Of a DNA stretch of 64,000 nucleotides, positions 27,225 to 47,196 are shown piece after piece. Both the position numbers and the translations under genes were made by a program. Below the pieces are notes generated by a model, which was not told the origin of the DNA, made no database searches, and saw only the letters and a program-made list of their open reading frames with translations. Where the stretch lies: contig JBEKKK010000001.1 of the NCBI GenBank assembly GCA_050010755.1, forward strand, positions 224,001-288,000, read 5' to 3'. Position 1 is the stretch's first letter. Each line of letters opens with the position of its first letter. Origin of the DNA: Candidatus Bathyarchaeia archaeon. Its GTDB lineage: Archaea > Thermoproteota > Bathyarchaeia > Bathyarchaeales > Bathycorpusculaceae.

Positions 27225-28229
27225 ATGCCAAAACTGAGGATTTATGTCACGAGGCAAATGCCGGAGAGAGGTTTGATGATAATAAGGAAGTACTTCGAGA
27301 CTGAAGTGTGGCCGGAGTATGCCCCGCCCCCGAAGAAGACGATTATAGAAAAAGCCAAGAATGTGGACGCCCTTGCCACACTTTTGTCTGACAAGATAGA
27401 CGCCGAAGTTTTTGACGCCGCGCCGAAATTGAAGATTGTCTCACAGATGGCTGTGGGCTTCGACAACATCGACCTGAAAGAAGCCACTAAGAGAGGAATC
27501 TATGTCACGAACACGCCTGAGGTGCTGACCGATACCACCGCAGACTTTGCATGGGCTTTGCTCATAGCTGTGGCGAGAAGAGTCGTTGAGGCAGACAAGT
27601 ATGTTCGCACGGGTCAATGGAAGGTCGGTTGGCATCCTGACATGATGACGGGCCGGGATGTTCACAACGCAACTATAGGCATCGTGGGCGCTGGCAGAAT
27701 AGGCTATGCGATGGCGAAGAGAGCAAAAGGATTCGACATGAAGATTCTCTTCTACGATGTCATCCCACGACCCGAGATGGAGAAAGATTTTGGTGCAAAA
27801 CGCATGGATCTTGATGAACTATTGCAGCAAGCAGACTTCGTCAGCATACACGTTCCGCTCATGAAAGAAACGCAACACTTAATGAACGAACAAAGATTTA
27901 GAATGATGAAGAAAACGGCCTACTTGATAAACAATTCACGTGGCCCAGTTGTCGACGAGAAGGCCCTGTACAAGGCATTGAAAGAAGGCTGGATCGCAGG
28001 CGCAGGAATCGACGTTTTCGAACAAGAACCAGCAACATTGGACAACCCTCTGCTCAAGCTTGACAACGTTGTCCTCGCTCCACACATTTCAAGCGCAAGC
28101 CTCGAGACCCGCGCGAAAATGGCCGAAATGGTAGCAGACAACCTCGTTTCGTTCTTTGAAGGAAAGAAACCGCCAAACCTTGTCAACCAAGACGTTATGA
28201 AAGTGCGTCCACTATCGAAGCAAATTTAA
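27225..28229 (+). CDS. gyaR: glyoxylate/hydroxypyruvate reductase
   Basis: AVGFDNID, TNTPEVLT, GAGRIG, NSRG.VVDE, DVFEQEP, PHISSA. Confidence 0.9.
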   Translation: MPKLRIYVTRQMPERGLMIIRKYFETEVWPEYAPPPKKTIIEKAKNVDALATLLSDKIDAEVFDAAPKLKIVSQMAVGFDNIDLKEATKRGIYVTNTPEVLTDTTADFAWALLIAVARRVVEADKYVRTGQWKVGWHPDMMTGRDVHNATIGIVGAGRIGYAMAKRAKGFDMKILFYDVIPRPEMEKDFGAKRMDLDELLQQADFVSIHVPLMKETQHLMNEQRFRMMKKTAYLINNSRGPVVDEKALYKALKEGWIAGAGIDVFEQEPATLDNPLLKLDNVVLAPHISSASLETRAKMAEMVADNLVSFFEGKKPPNLVNQDVMKVRPLSKQI

Positions 28230-33138: not shown

Positions 33139-33618
33139 TTGGATTTTCCCAGGAGAATCTATACAGATGAAGAAGTCATCAGGGCAAGAGGACTGGTTGA
33201 GAATGGATACAAACACATTTTGACATCCGAAGGCAGTCCAGCCTTCAAGCAGAAGGTGGGCAGAGCAATCGATCTCGTCAAAGTTGCGGGTTACTACGAT
33301 TTCTTGAGAACTTACATTCGTGAAATCAAGGAGATTGACGGCTTGACCCAGCTTCGACAAGCTGAGGCTGCAATATGGGCGAACATGTACGCCGTGGAGA
33401 ATCCCGTCGACGCGGCCAGTCTTTTTGTGCAAAAGGCTAACAGCATGAAGGAATACCTGGAGGGCAAGCTTTACTACGGCGGACTAGCGGAGAGACGTTC
33501 CGACGAAAAACGGATTGAATTTCTCAAAGTGTTAGAGTCCAAGAGTCAGGAAAAGCAGGTTAGAGAAGAGTGTGAGAGAATCCTGAAGCTGTGGCGAGAG
33601 GCTTATTGGGTGTATTAG
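33139..33618 (+). CDS. conserved hypothetical protein
   Basis: 159-aa ORF with TTG start filling the gap between two genes. Confidence 0.6.
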   Translation: MDFPRRIYTDEEVIRARGLVENGYKHILTSEGSPAFKQKVGRAIDLVKVAGYYDFLRTYIREIKEIDGLTQLRQAEAAIWANMYAVENPVDAASLFVQKANSMKEYLEGKLYYGGLAERRSDEKRIEFLKVLESKSQEKQVREECERILKLWREAYWVY

Positions 33619-33998
33619 ACGCTTTCAACCCTAATTTTTGTTCCGCTCTTCACCCTTTTAAATAGTTCAAGGTTCGAAGTGACTTTGCCCACGATGCTCA
33701 CGGGGCTGTAAGGTTGTGAGCTACCATAGAAGATGCATATGGCGCTTCCCATCGGCCAAAACGCGATTGTGCCGGTTTCGACCGTGCCCTTGGCTTTTTC
33801 TTCTCCCATCTTAATGGGTGTTTCGAAGTACACCTCTTCTTTCCACATCGCCGCTCTACCCTCTATCGGCAGTTTCCTAACTATCAAATCCACTGTCCTG
33901 GGCGCGAGAAACCGAACCAGTTCTCCTTCTGCCTCGCCCAGCCCTTCGACTATAAACTTCACTTTTACGCGAGATATCTCTGCTTGTTCTTCACTCAT
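33615..33998 (-). CDS. cyclophilin-like fold protein (DUF369/AF2241-like)
   Basis: APRTV..I...LP, WKEEVYFETP, G.IAFWP.G.AICIFYG. Confidence 0.85.
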   Translation of the reverse strand: MSEEQAEISRVKVKFIVEGLGEAEGELVRFLAPRTVDLIVRKLPIEGRAAMWKEEVYFETPIKMGEEKAKGTVETGTIAFWPMGSAICIFYGSSQPYSPVSIVGKVTSNLELFKRVKSGTKIRVESV

Positions 33999-35329
33999 TT
34001 TTCTTTCCGGCTTCTTTGAATGACCTCGTCCAGAATCTGCTCAAGAGAAACTGGCCCCAAAACTTCGAGCTCATACTTTACTCTTACGGTGGGCTTGCTA
34101 ATAGATATGACCCTTCTGAGGTCGATGGGCGTCCCGATGACTACAACATCGCAGGGCGTCCGATCGATTGTCTCCTTCAGCTCCTGCACCTGTTTTTCAC
34201 CATAACCCAACGCAGGAAGAACCGCCCCCAGATGCGCATACTTTCTGAACGCATCCCTTATCGACCCCACTGCGTATGGTCTCGGATCAACCAACTCAGC
34301 CGCTCCAAATCTCTTCGCGAAGACCACGCCGGCCCCGAAGGACATGCCACCATGCGTCACGGTTGGTCCATCCTCAATCACCAGAACCTTCTTTCCGCGG
34401 ACAGCTTCCGGATTGTCGGCGGTTATGGGTGAAGCTGCCTCCAGCACTTTAGCGTTCGGATTGACTGATTTGATGTTTTCCCTTACTTCGTGGACCTTTT
34501 GTGGATCTGCTGTGTCAACCTTGTTTATTATGATGACATCCGCCATTCGCAGGTTGGTTTCGCCAGGGTAGTATGTCAACTCGTTTCCTGCCCTGTGCGG
34601 GTCGGCCACGACGATGTTTAGATCAGGCCTGTAGAAGGACATGTCGTTGTTGCCCCCATCCCACACTATCACGTCAGCTTCGTCCTCAGCTTCTCTCAAA
34701 ATCTTTTCATAGTCTACTCCTGCGTAAACGATTATTCCGTTGTCAATGTGAGGCTCATACTCTTCTCTCTCTTCAATTGTGCACTCATACTTGTCCAAAT
34801 CCGCCAAAGAAGCGAAGCGTTCGCACACCTGTCTTCTCAAATTTCCGTAGGGCATCGGATGCCTGACGACTGCAACGTTCAGACCTTTATTCTTCAAGAT
34901 CTTTGCAACCTGCCTGGAGGTTTGGCTCTTGCCTGATCCTGTTCTGACAGCGCACACGGAGACAATGGGGACCTCTGCCTTCAGCATTGTTGTCTTGGGG
35001 CCCATCAGACGAAAATCTGGACCGTTCGCCAACACCTGAGAAGCCTTGTGCATCAGGTACTCATGGGAAACGTCGCTGTAAGCGAAAACGACCTGGTCAA
35101 CATCATGTTCTCTTATCAGCTTGGGAAGCTCTTCTTCTGAGCATATTGGTATTCCGTTCGGATACTTTGAGCCGGCAAGCTCAGCAGGATAGCAGCGCCC
35201 TTCAATTCCAGGTATCTGGGTGGCTGTGAAGGCCACTACGTCATAAGCGTCGTTGTCTCGGAAGAACACGTTGAAGTTATGGAAGTCCCTTCCAGCCGCG
35301 CCCATTATTACAACTTTGATTTGCTTCAT
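33995..35329 (-). CDS. COG2403 P-loop NTPase (cDPG-synthetase-like; arginine synthetase ArcE-like)
   Basis: GAAGRDFHNFN, AFTATQIP, RTGSGKSQT, RHPMPYG, EEREEYEPHI, WDGGNND, EDGPT.THGGM. Confidence 0.8.
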   Translation of the reverse strand: MKQIKVVIMGAAGRDFHNFNVFFRDNDAYDVVAFTATQIPGIEGRCYPAELAGSKYPNGIPICSEEELPKLIREHDVDQVVFAYSDVSHEYLMHKASQVLANGPDFRLMGPKTTMLKAEVPIVSVCAVRTGSGKSQTSRQVAKILKNKGLNVAVVRHPMPYGNLRRQVCERFASLADLDKYECTIEEREEYEPHIDNGIIVYAGVDYEKILREAEDEADVIVWDGGNNDMSFYRPDLNIVVADPHRAGNELTYYPGETNLRMADVIIINKVDTADPQKVHEVRENIKSVNPNAKVLEAASPITADNPEAVRGKKVLVIEDGPTVTHGGMSFGAGVVFAKRFGAAELVDPRPYAVGSIRDAFRKYAHLGAVLPALGYGEKQVQELKETIDRTPCDVVVIGTPIDLRRVISISKPTVRVKYELEVLGPVSLEQILDEVIQRSRKEK

Positions 35330-35372
35330 TGCAAAATCCTCCAGCAAAACCCCAAATCTGGGGGTTGAATAC

Positions 35373-35382
35373 TAGCGCGCGC
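35373..35382. repeat. TAGCGCGCGC motif just downstream of the TATA-like box of the COG2403 gene
   Basis: minus strand reads TTTATATGG-AAT-GCGCGCGCTAG. Confidence 0.8.
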
Positions 35383-35410
35383 ATTCCATATAAACCTTGA
35401 CGTCGGAGCA

Positions 35411-36514
35411 CTATTCTGTCAATTGGAGCACATTGTCGCTTATGTAGTCTATTTGTTTCGCCGTGACCCCAGGATGGACGGGCAGTGAAAACACACGTTC
35501 TGCCGCCTTTTCTGTCTCTGGAAGCCTATATATGCCGAACTTGCGATAGTACGGCATGAGATGTATCGGGTTCACGTAGCAGATGAACGCATCTATTCCC
35601 TTCTGCTTCAGCTTCTCAACGATGCTGTCCCTCTCTTTCTCCTTTGCTCTCTTCAATTGGACAGTGTACAGGTACCAAGAGCACTTGAAACCCTCCGGTT
35701 CGCTTGGCAGTTTAAGATTCTTTGCCTTCGCTAGGTTTTCTGTCAGTCTCTTCGCGTTCTGGCGCCTTCTGGCCACAAACTTTGGCAGTTTTTTGAGCTG
35801 TTCGACGCCTATGGCGGCAGCTATTTCCGGCATGTGGTAATTGTGTCCAAGCATCAGGGATTGATACTTCTTCTTCTCTCCGTGACTTCGAATGTACCGC
35901 GGCGTTTCCGCAATCTCGTCACTGTTCGTTGTTATCATGCCGCCTTCGCCCGTTGTCATGTTCTTGCTTCCGTAAAAGCTCCAGCAGGCAGCGTCGGCAA
36001 AGGTTCCTGGAGGTTTTCCCTTGTACGTTGCTCCATGCGCTTGAGCCGCGTCTTCTATGATTTTGAGCTCATGCTTGTCAGCTACTTCTCTTATGGGCTG
36101 CACGTCAGCAGGCATGCCATAGAGGTCAACCGGCATTATCGCTTTGGTCTTCCCCGTCACAGCCTTCCGAGCTGCTTCTGGAGAAATGGTGTACGTGTCA
36201 GGATTTATGTCAACAAAAACTGGTCTCGCTCTGTTGAACAATATGACCTCGGCTGTTGCAACAAACGTGAAGCTGGGTAGAATCACCTCGTCGCCGGCCT
36301 TCACACCAGCTGCTGTTAGAGCCGAGTGAAGAGCGGCGGTCCCGGAGTTCGTGGCTATTCCATGCTTCGCCTTAACAAACTTGGCAAAGGCTTTCTCGAA
36401 TTCCGTGACCTTCGGGCCTGCACCCAAGCCTGATGTTAAAATACCGCTTTTCAAGACTTTGACGACGGCTTCGATCTCTTCCTCGCCAATCTGAGGAGCA
36501 TTGATCGATATCAT
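35411..36514 (-). CDS. DegT/DnrJ/EryC1/StrS sugar aminotransferase
   Basis: NSGTAALH, TFVATA, EDAAQAHG, SFYGSKNMTTGEGG, G.NY.M. Confidence 0.92.
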   Translation of the reverse strand: MISINAPQIGEEEIEAVVKVLKSGILTSGLGAGPKVTEFEKAFAKFVKAKHGIATNSGTAALHSALTAAGVKAGDEVILPSFTFVATAEVILFNRARPVFVDINPDTYTISPEAARKAVTGKTKAIMPVDLYGMPADVQPIREVADKHELKIIEDAAQAHGATYKGKPPGTFADAACWSFYGSKNMTTGEGGMITTNSDEIAETPRYIRSHGEKKKYQSLMLGHNYHMPEIAAAIGVEQLKKLPKFVARRRQNAKRLTENLAKAKNLKLPSEPEGFKCSWYLYTVQLKRAKEKERDSIVEKLKQKGIDAFICYVNPIHLMPYYRKFGIYRLPETEKAAERVFSLPVHPGVTAKQIDYISDNVLQLTE

Positions 36515-36602
36515 CACAACGCCTTCCCAACTAGTGTAGAGATCTATGTTAATAACCTCTACGTTAGCATTTCGGATACGTTTCTGCACGCCGACAGAGG
36601 AA

Positions 36603-37235
36603 TTAGAATTTGTTGGCTAAGCCTTTCACCCTATTGAGGAACTCTTCCCTTTCTTTTTCAACCTCTTCCTTTCTTCTCAACAGAAACTCCAGCTCTTCGG
36701 ATATTTCCTCCAGCCACTGTTCCAAAGCCGCATTGCTCTCTTTGGTGGTCAGTTTTGCGATGTATCTTGACACGTCTTGAGCTGCGTTCTTCTTCAGCGA
36801 GCGCAAGGGGAAGTTGATTTCCTGAAACTTCGAGAAAGGAAAGAAATGCCTAGTTGAACGCGGTTCCATCAGACGGCCACTGACGCCTGCTGCTATGACT
36901 TTCTCGACGGTTATTTCGTTGTCGACCCCGTCCGTGTATCGATGTATTCTTCTTTTTCCGACATGTATCTTGCCCTTGAATACATCTGTGAGAATGACAG
37001 GTATGAGTTCATAGCCGAGGCTTTTCAATGCGAGCCAGCGGTGCATGCCATCCAAGATGACATGGGTTTTCTCGTCGACCACGATTGGATACTTCAGCAC
37101 TCCGTCGTTGATAATTTCTTTTCGCAGGAGCTCAAGGTAAAAGGGGGAGCCCTTTTCATGGGGCTTGAGCTGATCAACCCGTAATAAGGTCACTTTGGCA
37201 GCGACGCTGTCGACTCTTTGCACAGTAGTCGTCAC
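36603..37235 (-). CDS. ParB/Srx-fold protein resembling the free-serine kinases SerK/SbnI
   Basis: LKPHE, PIVVD, ILDGMHRW.AL..LG, T.EKVI..G..GRLMEPRSTRH.FPF; starts 12 nt after the trpB2 stop. Confidence 0.7.
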   Translation of the reverse strand: MTTTVQRVDSVAAKVTLLRVDQLKPHEKGSPFYLELLRKEIINDGVLKYPIVVDEKTHVILDGMHRWLALKSLGYELIPVILTDVFKGKIHVGKRRIHRYTDGVDNEITVEKVIAAGVSGRLMEPRSTRHFFPFSKFQEINFPLRSLKKNAAQDVSRYIAKLTTKESNAALEQWLEEISEELEFLLRRKEEVEKEREEFLNRVKGLANKF

Positions 37236-37247
37236 ATTATTCGCCTG

Positions 37248-38609
37248 TCAGCTGCTGAAAATGGGAACTTCGATTTTTTGAGGCTCGTATTCCACGAGTT
37301 TACCTGCGAGATACTGCTCGTACGCTGAGAGATCGAGAAGCCCATGTCCGCTGTAATTCATTGCAATGACTTTCTTTTCCCCTGTTTTCCTGCAATTCAG
37401 AGCCTCATCCATCACGAACTTCAGGCTATGGGCGGTTTCGGGAGCCGCTATCATGCCCTCCGTTTGAGCCAGAAGCCTAGCCGCCTCGAAAACCTCGGTT
37501 TGATCGTAGGCAACTGAACGGGCATATCCTTTGTGGATGAGGTATGAGATGAGCGGTGACATGCCGTGATACCTTAGGCCTCCAGCGTGGACTGGCGGAC
37601 ATGCGTAGTCGTGTCCTATCGTCAGCATTTTGATTAGCGGAGTCATCTTGGCGGTGTCTCCATAGTCGTACGTGTAGACTCCCCTAGTCGTGTGCGGAAC
37701 GGCTTTCGATTCGCAAGCAACGAATTCTGTCTCGGTCCTCCCTTTGAGCTTGTCCATCATGAAAGGAAAGCAGAAGCCGCCGTAGTTAGAGCCTCCTCCT
37801 ATGCAGCCGCAAACGAGATTCGGGTTCACGTCTATGCTTTCGAATTGTTTCTTCGCTTCCAATCCTATTATAGTCTGATGCATCAGAACATGGTTTAGGA
37901 CAGAGCCGAGAGAATACCGCGTGTCTTCGTGTGCAAGCGTGTCTTCGATGGCTTCGCTTATAGCAATGCCGAGCGTTCCGGGATGATTGGGATTTTCTTT
38001 CAGCAGTTTCCGGCCAAATTCTGTTCGGTCGCTTGGTGAAGGGCACATTTCAGCTCCGTACAGCTGAGCCATCGTCCTTCTGCCGGGCTTGTTTTGATAA
38101 CTCACGCGAACCATGTATATTTGGCATTTGAGTCCGAAGAGCACGGTGGCCAAAGCTAAGGCTGTTCCCCATTGTCCAGCCCCAGTTTCAGTGGCTAATC
38201 TTTGGATTCCCTGCTTCCTGTTGTAGTACGCCTGTGCAATAGCTGTGTTGGTCTTGTGACTGCCTGCTGGGCTGAAGTTTTCACATTTGAAGTAGATTTC
38301 GGCGGGCGTCTTGAGGAACCTCTCGAATCTTTTGGCGCGGTACAGAGGTGTCGGGCGGGGGAGTCTCAAATAAGCATCAAGCACTTCATCTGGTATCTTT
38401 ACGAACCGTTCCGTTGATACTTCTTGTGCGACGAGTTCTTTTGCGAATATTCTTTCAAGAACTTTTGGGTTTATCGGTTTCAACGTTGTTGGATCCAGTG
38501 GGGGCGACAGGGGCTCAGGAAGATCTGCTTGTATGTTGTACCAGGATGATGGCATTTCTTCGGGTTCCAGTTGAATCACATACTCTTTGTTCTTGCTTGT
38601 TTGCGTCAT
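37248..38609 (-). CDS. trpB2: tryptophan synthase beta chain type 2
   Basis: WYNIQADLP, RPTPL.RA, GSHKTNTA, TETGAGQWG, GSVLNHV, GGGSN, HAGGLRYHG, SGHGLLD; no trpA nearby. Confidence 0.95.
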   Translation of the reverse strand: MTQTSKNKEYVIQLEPEEMPSSWYNIQADLPEPLSPPLDPTTLKPINPKVLERIFAKELVAQEVSTERFVKIPDEVLDAYLRLPRPTPLYRAKRFERFLKTPAEIYFKCENFSPAGSHKTNTAIAQAYYNRKQGIQRLATETGAGQWGTALALATVLFGLKCQIYMVRVSYQNKPGRRTMAQLYGAEMCPSPSDRTEFGRKLLKENPNHPGTLGIAISEAIEDTLAHEDTRYSLGSVLNHVLMHQTIIGLEAKKQFESIDVNPNLVCGCIGGGSNYGGFCFPFMMDKLKGRTETEFVACESKAVPHTTRGVYTYDYGDTAKMTPLIKMLTIGHDYACPPVHAGGLRYHGMSPLISYLIHKGYARSVAYDQTEVFEAARLLAQTEGMIAAPETAHSLKFVMDEALNCRKTGEKKVIAMNYSGHGLLDLSAYEQYLAGKLVEYEPQKIEVPIFSS

Positions 38610-38623
38610 TCTACCTTCTCCTA

Positions 38624-38707
38624 TGTACATTTATGTTCGTTCATGTACTTTATTGCTCAGACTGTTACGCAGGAACATATTTATACTTTCTTGCACAGAA
38701 ATGTGCA
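38624..38707. promoter_or_regulatory. phased TRP-box-like TrpY operator array in the trpB2/trpY divergent promoter
   Basis: TGTACA 38624, TGTTCG 38634, TGTACT 38644, TGCTCA 38654; GGAACA 38672, TATACT 38682, TGCACA 38692, TGTGCA 38702 (two 10-bp phased sets). Confidence 0.7.
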
Positions 38708-38723
38708 TTAAGGAAACCGTAAC

Positions 38724-39227
38724 ATGTGGAACAGCGCAAAGAAATACTTTGAGGGGCAGCCAGAAAGGCTCAAGGTGGCACGAGTGCTGATAGAAAATGG
38801 TCTGGCCGTAAGAAACGGAAAAATCTACCTTAACGAGATTGAAGTTCCCCCTGTTAGAATTGCGCGGGCGGCCGGAGTGGACAGACGGACAGTCGTAGAA
38901 ACGTTGAAAGCAATTGGATCCGACCGAGGACTTCGACTAATATTCCAAGACATTAAATCTGCAGGTCTTTCGCTGAGAGAAATTGCCAAGGATCTAAACC
39001 TTGGCGTGGTTGAAATAACGCCCGTGGATGCGAAGATCCCGGGCATATTAGCAGGATCAGCCATGATTCTTGCAAAGAATGGCCTAAGCATAAGACAGGC
39101 AATCGTAGATGACCCAGAGCTTTCACCAGAACCCAAACTCACGTTGATTGTGGAGAGAAAAATCCCCGGAGAAATCATCCCGGAGCTGCTCAACGTAAAA
39201 GGAGTAGCAAAGGTTTCAATCTACTAG
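38724..39227 (+). CDS. trpY: TrpY-like HTH-ACT regulator (COG2150)
   Basis: MW....FEG.P.R..VAR, ARAAGVDRRTV, GVVEI, PGILA, SIRQA..DPEL, C-terminal GV..VSIY; divergent from trpB2. Confidence 0.8.
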   Translation: MWNSAKKYFEGQPERLKVARVLIENGLAVRNGKIYLNEIEVPPVRIARAAGVDRRTVVETLKAIGSDRGLRLIFQDIKSAGLSLREIAKDLNLGVVEITPVDAKIPGILAGSAMILAKNGLSIRQAIVDDPELSPEPKLTLIVERKIPGEIIPELLNVKGVAKVSIY

Positions 39228-46044: not shown

Positions 46045-47196
46045 TTAAAGCGCTGCAAGTTTCTTCTGAGCTGCTGCCAATCCAACGCCAAGTCCGCACA
46101 TGCAACCCAGACGCGTCAAAGTAGTCTCTACGGCTCCTATGGTTGAAAGAATATCATTTTCGCCAACATTCCCCATGTGGCCCACTCTGAAGCCTTTGCC
46201 CTTTATCGGTCCGATGGTCGAAGCGACGATTATTCCAAGCTTTCGCATTTCACTCCTGAATGATCCGTCTTCGATTTTCTCAGGGTAATAGGCTGCTGTG
46301 AGAGTGTCTGCCCTACATTTTTCTTGTGCCACGATTTCGATTTTCAGGGCGTCCATTGCGGCTCGGAAAGCTTCAGCTATTATGTGATGCCTCTTGAACC
46401 TGGTTTCCAAACCTTCTGCGAGAATTGATCTCAAGGATTCGGAAAGAGCATATATCATGTTAACAGGCGGAGTGGCAAAATACTTCGAAGGATCCATCAT
46501 TATGGGCAACCAATTCCTTATGTCACCATACCACATTCCAACAGGAGTCTTTCTGTCTTCCAGAAGACTCAGGACTCGGTCATTCATCGAAAACAGAGCC
46601 AAGCCCGGCGGAAGCCCTATGCACTTTTGAGATCCGCTCACACAGGCGTCTATTTCCCAGTCGTCGACCCGAACCTCTATTCCCCCTAGAGAACACACGG
46701 TATCAACAATGTAGAATGCATCGCTGTTGTCTTTCACAGCCCGACCAATTTCTTTTATTGGGTTGACAACACCTGTTGAAGTATCCACGTGAGTAACAGT
46801 GACCGCTTTGTAGTCGTCTTCCTTCAAAGCTTTTTTGACCTGATGCGATTCCACACATTTGCCCCATGGTATCTCCAAGGTTTTTTGCACGGCTCCGTGA
46901 GCCTTCGAGATTTTTGCGAAATAATCGCCGAAATATCCGTTGACAACGTTAAGAACTTTGTCGCCCGGCTCTATTATGTTCGCGATTCCAATTTCTAAGG
47001 CCAATGTTCCGGATCCGGCGAGAGCAAAAACCTGATGTTTGGTCATGAATACGCGTCTCAGGTTCTCGAGCGCTTCTTTGAAGGTTTCGACAAACTGCGG
47101 ATCCGTATGTGCAAGAGTTGGTTTACACAATGCACGCAGAACTGCTGGATCCACATTCGTCGGACCAGGAATCATCAGAAGCTTTCTTTCGCTCAT
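46045..47196 (-). CDS. class V aminotransferase (serine-pyruvate / alanine-glyoxylate type)
   Basis: LMIPGPT, GSGT, HVDTSTG, VDTVCSLGG, GSQKC..PPGL, RVGHMG. Confidence 0.9.
   Translation of the reverse strand: MSERKLLMIPGPTNVDPAVLRALCKPTLAHTDPQFVETFKEALENLRRVFMTKHQVFALAGSGTLALEIGIANIIEPGDKVLNVVNGYFGDYFAKISKAHGAVQKTLEIPWGKCVESHQVKKALKEDDYKAVTVTHVDTSTGVVNPIKEIGRAVKDNSDAFYIVDTVCSLGGIEVRVDDWEIDACVSGSQKCIGLPPGLALFSMNDRVLSLLEDRKTPVGMWYGDIRNWLPIMMDPSKYFATPPVNMIYALSESLRSILAEGLETRFKRHHIIAEAFRAAMDALKIEIVAQEKCRADTLTAAYYPEKIEDGSFRSEMRKLGIIVASTIGPIKGKGFRVGHMGNVGENDILSTIGAVETTLTRLGCMCGLGVGLAAAQKKLAAL

Follow-up and report, generated by a model that had tools for sequence, protein, structure and literature searches.

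Where does TrpB2 obtain its activated serine, and why do cells keep this enzyme? TrpB2 is a widespread stand-alone TrpB-like enzyme that uses pyridoxal phosphate (PLP), and it was reported in 2014 to prefer O-phospho-L-serine (OPS). We addressed both questions at a locus of Candidatus Bathyarchaeia archaeon (assembly GCA_050010755.1, contig JBEKKK010000001.1). The window is the whole stretch of 64,000 nucleotides (nt) that was analyzed, and window coordinates are positions in it. The host genome is labelled G000. Its assembly has 8 contigs and 2.19 Mb and is 93.5% complete. The locus encodes a TrpY-family regulator, a TrpB2 divergent from it and, directly after trpB2, a protein of 210 amino acids (aa) with a ParB/sulfiredoxin (Srx) fold. 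We favor, with moderate confidence, the explanation that this protein is a truncated serine kinase that feeds OPS to TrpB2 for indole salvage.

The 210-aa protein would phosphorylate L-serine to OPS with E27 as the catalytic base, as its lineage, motifs and partners suggest. TrpB2 would eliminate phosphate from OPS and add indole to form L-tryptophan. This reaction is reported for the family and predicted for the clade found in the window. TrpY would bind ATGTACA-type boxes in the shared promoter region and switch the pair by tryptophan supply, and tryptophan limitation would relieve it. Two parts of this scheme have precedents: PMC5120207 reports that SerK phosphorylates free serine, and TrpB2 enzymes are reported to take OPS (Busch 2014, cited in PMC11917138).

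The gene order was read directly from the sequence. The TGA stop of trpB2 is at 37250-37248, and the kinase-like gene starts with GTG at 37235. This confirms the open reading frames (ORFs) and the 12-nt spacer given by the sequence-only reading, an earlier account of this DNA made without database searches. The two genes are predicted to be co-transcribed. TrpB2 scored over the cut-offs of NF009057 (682.7 bits; cut-off 366) and TIGR01415 (667.9 bits; cut-off 518.85) and below that of the canonical trpB model TIGR00263 (148.9 bits versus 392.45). Its closest PDB relatives were the Sulfolobus TrpB2 chains 6hul_B (E 4e-144), 4qys_B and 6hte_B. K126 in SHKTN and E148 in TETGAGQWG are invariant among 31 aligned sequences, and we take them to be the PLP lysine and the catalytic glutamate. 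The regulator is narrowly over the cut-off of NF053754 TrpY_fam (183.4 bits versus 180) and matches it at full length (2-164 of 163 model positions).

The 210-aa protein contains the motifs K24-P-H-E27, D62-G-M-H-R-W67 and P125-R-S-T-R-H-F-F-P-F134 in its translation. E27 aligns with Glu30 of SerK (KPHE) and with the Q or A of the deposited E30Q and E30A structures. Among 32 aligned relatives, with identity reaching down to 29%, the invariant residues are E27, D62, G63, R66, P79, L122, P125, R129, H130, F132, F134, L147 and E177. The top NCBIfam match was NF053625, the model for SerK as an ADP-dependent L-serine kinase (52.2 bits, E 4.5e-14, residues 14-92 against positions 15-97 of 244). The second was SbnI NF033589 (36.6 bits, residues 11-89). 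The best seven PDB sequence matches were SerK (5x0b, E 2.2e-8), SbnI and PF0380 (1vk1), with E values from 2e-8 to 2e-6. In phmmer, residues 16-92 align to SerK 19-99. A second stretch, which alone is not significant, pairs residues 109-136 with SerK 204-231 (PRSTRHFFPF against PKTTRHVLPF).

The fold agrees with the sequence matches. The AlphaFold2 model, built from the 32-sequence alignment, had a predicted local distance difference test (pLDDT) score of 89.2 and a predicted template modelling (pTM) score of 0.82. The top 9 Foldseek matches were all SerK or SbnI (E 4e-8 to 1e-6), and Noc followed at 6e-4. In VIA-align the model matched 1vk1 with Z 16.7 and a root mean square deviation of 1.8 A over 127 residues. 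Z was 13.6-15.9 for the SerK entries (15.5 for 5x0j), 11.9-13.8 for SbnI and at most 8.9, over ~82 aligned residues, for Noc, ParB and sulfiredoxin. Model residues 10-148 cover SerK chain positions 13-242 with 127-138 residues aligned, so the protein has the SerK-type fold including its C-terminal strand. Residues 164-209 form one long confident helix in the model, and this helix has no match.

The sequence-only reading had described these three motifs in the SerK layout, a missing SerK central domain and an added C-terminal tail. The translation contains the motifs, phmmer and the structural alignment agree on the missing center, and the tail is the single modelled helix. It had also named in advance a comparison of profiles and predicted structure with SerK, SbnI and other ParB/Srx families as a test. 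That comparison groups the protein with SerK and SbnI (Z 11.9-16.7 versus 8.9 or less for the others). It is clearly within the SerK/SbnI lineage and not in the clamp, nuclease or sulfiredoxin branches.

Each of those branches was considered and rejected. A canonical ParB/Noc clamp dependent on cytidine triphosphate (CTP) does not fit. Pfam ParB_N scored 23.9 bits, under its gathering score of 26.3, and the Noc model scored 18.2 bits against a 315-bit cut-off. The Pfam search found no further domain in the protein, including helix-turn-helix (HTH) or other DNA-binding domains. There is no parA, and the neighbors are trpB2 and a DegT-type gene. A sulfiredoxin does not fit either, with Met64 in D62-G-M64-H-R where the catalytic Cys is expected and a fold match of only Z 7-8.8. 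We assume here that this motif is equivalent to the sulfiredoxin GGCHR. A ParB-type nuclease was rejected on structural scores far below those of SerK and SbnI (Z 8.9 or less).

Linkage to trpB2 was strict. The locus scan, which took one genome per species, retrieved 79 loci, in 74 of which the encoded protein shares 54-80% identity with the 210-aa protein. The sequence-only reading had stated that an adjacency that is not conserved would refute it, and among these loci the adjacency is kept: trpB2 is immediately upstream on the same strand in 74/74. The inferred spacer measures 14 nt at the median and no more than 60 nt in 70/74. A TrpY homolog is divergent from trpB2 in 67 of the 74, and the remaining seven loci stop at the contig end. 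The other 5 of the 79 loci, from Thermoprotei/Thermofilaceae (36-44% identity, N-domain only), had no trpB2 or trpY. Of 151 Bathyarchaeia genomes sampled, 7 (6 of 80 genera) have the full-length form, and trpB2 adjoins it in all seven. The protein atlas yielded nothing outside Bathyarchaeota clusters.

The 74 loci are labelled Bathyarchaeota or Bathyarchaeia except for two from an "uncultured archaeon" (L058 and L066) and one from "Acidiferrales" (L038). L038 (DASPPK010000009.1), labelled Acidiferrales bacterium, contains the complete archaeal module of trpY, trpB2 and the kinase-like gene with 64-85% identity, and this contig is probably from Bathyarchaeia and was mis-binned. Genome G418 contains only a fragment, a 117-aa ORF (C40:15069-15413) that matches positions 95-210 and lies on a different contig from trpB2. 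The fragment may be a remnant.

The trees also point to a lasting association. The full-length kinase-like family is one clade, with a Shimodaira-Hasegawa-like approximate likelihood ratio test (SH-aLRT) value of 100. In the TrpB2 tree, a quick IQ-TREE run, 57 of 60 linked TrpB2s form a separate clade of kinase-linked copies only (SH-aLRT 100; stem 0.7 changes per site). The other three (L012, L035 and L045) are inside the general TrpY-linked TrpB2 clade. Since one kinase-like clade has partners in two TrpB2 clades, the adjacency outlived at least one partner change. The kinase-like family tree is poorly resolved, and its starred branches force only one partner switch. G148 encodes a 142-aa "mini" relative (37% identical) between trpY and trpB2, which is a second, independent arrangement.

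The region between trpY and trpB2 contains operator-like boxes (Table 1). Exact TGTACA was present in 38 of the 67 trpY-trpB2 intergenic regions, versus a mean of 2.6 and a maximum of 7 in shuffles (n=200). The layout is kept across the 67 loci (ATGTAC[AT]...AATAAAGTATAAATAT...GTAC..GTAC). An ATGTAC(A/T) box lies toward trpY, AATAAAGTATAAATAT forms the core in the middle, and two GTAC-centered boxes come next, followed by a GGAG or GGTG stretch and the trpB2 start. We take TGTACA to be the "TRP box" of TrpY. The boxes of the window appear to fit the TRP-box operators of Methanothermobacter TrpY. That protein is reported to bind TRP boxes between trpY and trpE (PMC6737238), and TrpY control of trpB2 has been reported (cited in PMC3729527).

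The true start of trpB2 is probably the ATG at 38609 (M8) and not 38630. This start is favored because the first seven "codons" of the longest ORF correspond in related loci to the conserved ATGTACAT box and a Shine-Dalgarno-like stretch.

Table 1. Features of the trpY-trpB2-kinase-like locus in the window
Feature	Position	Strand	Description
trpY-family regulator	38724-39227	+	167 aa, divergent from trpB2; NF053754
Control region shared by trpY and trpB2	38610-38723	.	Boxes around a TATA-like core
Box ATGTGCAT	38701-38708		Control region
TATA-like core	about 38677-38686		Control region
Box ATGTACT	38643-38649		Control region
Box ATGTACAT	38623-38630		Control region
GGAGAAGG	7 nt before ATG 38609		Ahead of the likely trpB2 start
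trpB2, stand-alone TrpB-like PLP enzyme	37248-38630	-	460 aa as longest ORF; likely start ATG 38609
Spacer	37236-37247	-	12 nt; from the trpB2 stop to the kinase-like GTG start
Short SerK/SbnI-like ParB/Srx-fold protein	36603-37235	-	210 aa, GTG start; core 10-148, C-terminal helix 164-209
DegT/DnrJ/EryC1-family aminotransferase	35411-36589	-	Pfam PF01041, 427.5 bits; downstream neighbor

The rest of the tryptophan pathway was not found in the host. No trpA (best match 19 bits), indole-3-glycerol-phosphate synthase or chorismate-binding TrpE was over cut-off in the 93.5%-complete G000 assembly, and 14/14 control genomes were positive. The operon without trpA that the sequence-only reading described thus extends to an assembly without these genes. 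The module is the only recognizable tryptophan route in G000 and would therefore serve indole salvage. In the sample of its family, trpA was present in all 12 genomes without the module. Of the four genomes with the module, among them G000, three had no trpA, and in the remaining one the only trpA is a divergent copy (139 bits) beside its other TrpB2. The contrast across the whole class is weak (trpA absent in 6/7 carriers versus 82/144 non-carriers), and the genomes are all kin.

Apart from the linked trpB2, G000 contains one orphan TrpB2 gene. The orphan (C1:337111-338412, minus strand, 433 aa) is outside the window, flanked by genes for FEN-1 and a protein-isoaspartate methyltransferase, and its TrpB2 clade is a separate one that other module carriers share. 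G000 also encodes a 522-aa tryptophanase-family protein (C4:22694-24262; L210:1194-2762, minus strand; NF009709, 603.7 bits), which could alternatively be a tyrosine phenol-lyase. With a tryptophanase-family enzyme encoded, indole would be part of the host's own metabolism, and the cell may both make and re-use it.

The 210-aa protein is the only SerK-like gene product in G000. The second ParB match is a ParB-HTH protein on contig C3. No CysK/M over cut-off and no SepRS, the other possible OPS consumers, were found in G000, which leaves TrpB2 as the only evident phosphoserine consumer near the kinase-like gene. A SerK-like role in cysteine synthesis was rejected for G000 on the lack of a CysK/M over cut-off.

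The wider family of SerK-like proteins without the SerK center recurs beside enzymes of the same kind. The family profile matches 221 of 401 sampled genomes of the phylum. Three sizes were present in this sample: the full-length form, which was found only in Bathyarchaeia; a tail-less "mini" form of ~140-210 aa; and SerK-like proteins of ~280-330 aa that match the N-domain alone. We examined mini-type loci in two sets, the 24 best non-full-length loci and the next 40. In 31 of the 64 (12/24 and 19/40), the gene is beside (within 2.5 kb) or fused to a gene for a fold-type-II PLP enzyme. The partners in the first set were one SerK-like/CysK-M fusion, one enzyme of the cystathionine-beta-synthase (CBS) type, one CysK/M, five N-extended CysK/M-like proteins and four trpB1-trpA operons. 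Those in the second set were 12 CysO-like proteins, one CysK/M and six trpB1-trpA operons, of which all six are convergent; the 19/40 is a lower bound because detection used five PLP queries only. The N-extended CysK/M-like neighbors have CysO, the O-phosphoserine sulfhydrylase of Aeropyrum (1wkv, E 6.5e-71), as their closest PDB match. P0143, a 582-aa protein from Bathyarchaeia, has two SerK-like repeats fused to a CysK/M domain, and L090 is also a SerK-like/CysK-M fusion. These recurring phosphoserine-type partners are the main indirect support that relatives without the SerK center would still make phosphoserine.

Several observations on the mini proteins stand apart from the module. Mini SerK-like genes occur with CysO-type, CysK/M or CBS-type genes in the Thermoproteota loci L090, L092, L096, L099, L100, L104, L107, L109 and L215-L248. 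Their products may be an unrecognized phosphoserine source for archaeal cysteine synthesis. In one family of the phylum, f38, a mini SerK-like gene is located directly after a canonical trpB1-trpA pair on the same strand (L091 and L101) or is convergent with it (L105, L108, L212-L214, L221, L222 and L235). The N-terminal 75 residues of the Aeropyrum O-phosphoserine sulfhydrylase 3vsc_A align to the ParB-like core of the model with Z 7.0. The second SerK-like repeat of P0143, which precedes its CysK/M domain, is degenerate. A SerK-like domain that has decayed may be the origin of the N-extension in CysO-type enzymes.

Outside Bathyarchaeia, the closest full-length relatives occur in another setting. 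They derive from low-GC aquatic metagenomes, share 30-41% identity with the 210-aa protein and carry the same tail. The 17 loci examined are long same-strand clusters (L114, L119, L126, L127 and L138 are examples) with cytidylyl- or nucleotidyltransferases, adjacent or fused, and with Asp/Glu racemases, LicD, methyltransferases, NeuB and a phosphatidyltransferase for alcohols activated with cytidine diphosphate (CDP). A cytidylyltransferase-like domain is fused to the protein in 14 of 26 distant representatives. The clusters look like a pathway from kinase through CDP activation to transfer that decorates a glycan with a phospho-compound. The pattern says that a small-molecule kinase passes its phospho-intermediate to the next enzyme. 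The tail is not peculiar to the TrpB2 pairing, as relatives of 30-40% identity in glycan-type clusters without trpB2 have it too. It therefore belongs to the kinase module and is not a TrpB2 adaptor.

These relatives raise the alternative that the 210-aa protein, as a small-molecule kinase from the SerK lineage, acts on a substrate other than L-serine. L-Threonine, D-serine, homoserine or an amino alcohol are candidates, and the TrpB2 clade would then make a tryptophan analog or use another phospho-donor substrate. The racemases, LicD and cytidylyl- or nucleotidyltransferases of the glycan-type clusters fit such a substrate, as do the missing SerK central domain and the linked TrpB2s, whose separate clade has a long stem (0.7 changes per site). 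Linkage to TrpY and the complementary trpA pattern within the family indicate tryptophan itself instead. The mini relatives associate with genes of the O-phosphoserine sulfhydrylase type, and the Lys126 and Glu148 motifs of TrpB2 are invariant. We regard this alternative as unlikely.

The 210-aa protein could also be a non-catalytic partner, a nucleotide-binding switch or co-regulator of TrpB2 or of the operon. SbnI is a precedent, since NCBIfam names it a bifunctional regulator/OPS synthase, and ParB-fold proteins are often nucleoside triphosphate switches (PMC12704722). The long C-terminal helix of the model could mediate protein contacts. A regulatory role of this kind is quite improbable given the invariant SerK catalytic Glu and both invariant motifs. 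The Pfam search found no HTH or DNA-binding domain, and relatives are fused to enzymes (CysK/M, nucleotidyltransferases and asparagine synthase) and not to DNA-binding domains.

A reversed reaction, in which phosphoserine is converted to serine, would make the protein a substitute for SerB like the proposed SerBK, with TrpB2 using that serine. No SerB was over cut-off in G000, the best match being 84.9 bits versus 144, and in GapMind 2026 a remote SbnI-like family is proposed to take the place of SerB (PMC13759103). The same source describes the reversed reaction as thermodynamically unfavorable, TrpB2 enzymes are reported to prefer OPS, and the reversal would leave the strict trpB2 and trpY linkage without an explanation. 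We consider it very unlikely. It is hardly credible that trpB2 simply has a ParB-type nuclease, a partition protein or a sulfiredoxin-like protein as its neighbor: the weak ParB_N and Noc matches and an early report of PF0380 (1vk1) as a nuclease (PMC5120207) are outweighed by Z values of 8.9 or less over ~82 aligned residues, M64 at the sulfiredoxin Cys position, the lack of HTH and parA, a separate ParB-HTH gene on C3 and trpB2 linkage in 74/74 loci.

Several points weigh against a truncated serine kinase that feeds TrpB2. The 210-aa protein is below the equivalog cut-offs of SerK (380 bits) and SbnI (350 bits) and is outside both equivalog families. Its sequence-profile match is limited to the N-terminal ~80 residues. 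The SerK center, ~100 residues (100-203), is without a counterpart, with only residues 93-108 in its place. If that center shapes the serine site, specificity may differ. No trpB2 or trpY was present in the 80 loci of tailed relatives from outside Bathyarchaeia (L110-L189). Since these relatives belong to glycan-type clusters, the substrate may be another hydroxy compound, and serine is presumed. A SerK-like gene directly adjoins only 8 of the ~124 TrpB2 matches in the class sample and is within ~3.5 kb of 3 more, so TrpB2 usually works without a dedicated kinase. The module carriers all belong to one class and are related, so these counts do not represent independent events. Canonical SerC and SerB were not over cut-off in G000. 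The genome encodes three SerA-like dehydrogenases and a class-V aminotransferase, and an OPS route from 3-phosphoglycerate is therefore possible. It is uncertain that the module is self-contained, as the sequence-only reading had called it. The available text of PMC6737238 reports that the Thermococcus TrpY homolog does not regulate trp genes, so tryptophan responsiveness is only presumed for the TrpY of the window.

In a bolder version of the serine kinase explanation, the kinase and TrpB2 would physically associate as a "tryptophan synthase" composed of two enzymes. Docked by its C-terminal helix, the kinase would pass OPS directly to a co-evolved TrpB2 clade, in the place of TrpA. Archaea without the pathway would live on environmental indole, and mini SerKs would be general phosphoserine suppliers for archaeal fold-type-II PLP beta-replacement enzymes. 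We think it improbable that all of this holds.

Pairs of a kinase and an OPS-using enzyme are already known (SerK/CysK and SbnI/SbnA). SerK TK0378 of Thermococcus kodakarensis and PF0380 (1vk1, 5x0b-5x0k) share with the 210-aa protein the ParB/Srx-like core, the KPHE Glu, DG(H/M)HRW and the P(K/R)(T/S)TRH..PF strand. As proposed here, the SerK system uses a serine kinase to provide a fold-type-II PLP enzyme with OPS (PMC5120207). The 210-aa protein differs from SerK in lacking ~100 central residues, in an added 46-residue C-terminal helix and in its score (52 bits versus the 380-bit cut-off). Its partner is TrpB2, whereas that of SerK is an OPS-using CysK. It is linked in a predicted operon; Tk-serK, in the available description (PMC5120207), is not in such an operon.

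SbnI-SbnA of Staphylococcus, from staphyloferrin B synthesis, is similar by analogy, with a free serine kinase encoded together with an OPS-consuming PALP enzyme. Here that enzyme is TrpB2, in 74/74 loci. SbnI differs in its 254 aa, its central domain, its regulatory role and its siderophore pathway. TrpA-TrpB also has a small partner gene beside trpB that delivers one of the two substrates. TrpA delivers indole, whereas the partner here would deliver activated serine. The unpublished pairs or fusions of mini SerK-like proteins with CysO, CysK/M or CBS in Thermoproteota have the same core without the SerK center and combine a putative kinase with an OPS-type PLP enzyme. They differ in lacking the C-terminal helix, in size (~140-180 aa), in identity (31-47%, and 32-41% for three matching rows of the second set) and in their sulfur amino acid partners. 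LicA/LicC/LicD-type decoration combines a kinase, a cytidylyltransferase and a phosphotransferase. By analogy, the nearest full-length relatives occur with, or are fused to, cytidylyl- or nucleotidyltransferases and occur with LicD, whereas the window gene occurs with trpB2 and trpY.

New are TrpB2 as the partner, an architecture that lacks the SerK center and ends in a helix, a dedicated clade of TrpB2 and the occurrence in genomes that have no trp pathway. The sequence-only reading knew of no earlier description of the coupling, and full-text searches of the literature library likewise retrieved no description of a pairing of TrpB2 with a serine-kinase-like protein. Neither "TrpB" nor "tryptophan" occurs in this connection in the available text of GapMind 2026 (PMC13759103) or of the ParB-CTPase survey PMC12704722, whose datasets may list the family.

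The neighboring genes were also examined. The DegT-type gene is 400 nt or less downstream in 48 of 66 related loci with enough flank. It is also downstream of trpB2 in relatives without the kinase-like gene, and its membership of the module is doubtful. It is the first of a downstream trio (window 33615-36589, minus strand) that also encodes a 450-aa P-loop protein with weak cobW/LpxK matches and a cyclophilin-like protein. The trio is kept in most related loci and is found downstream of trpB2 in genomes without the kinase-like gene as well. Three relatives without a full-length kinase-like gene (L194:4491-5630, L195 and L196:1659-2792) have a gene of the NAD-kinase/diacylglycerol-kinase fold, 377-379 aa, between trpB2 and DegT. 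The G000 copy of this gene is elsewhere (C1:748467-749582, 47% identical).

Two further genes are within 10 kb of the module. A SerA-like 2-hydroxyacid dehydrogenase is encoded at window 27240-28208 (plus strand). The class-V aminotransferase, 383 aa, is in the window 46408-47115 region (G000:C1:270045-271196, minus strand) and has aspartate-glyoxylate and pyridoxamine-pyruvate NCBIfam matches, all below cut-off. The two may possibly be part of a non-canonical serine or phosphoserine route.

A kinase-like gene tied to trpB2 in genomes without the rest of the pathway offers a concrete and directly testable answer to the question of where TrpB2 obtains OPS and why cells keep it. It predicts that some Bathyarchaeia would be tryptophan auxotrophs that depend on indole, a prediction relevant to their ecology and cultivation. 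A further outcome is a candidate minimal serine-kinase scaffold of ~140 residues plus a helix. If active, this would be a compact part for making phosphoserine or, with TrpB-type biocatalysts, tryptophan analogs.

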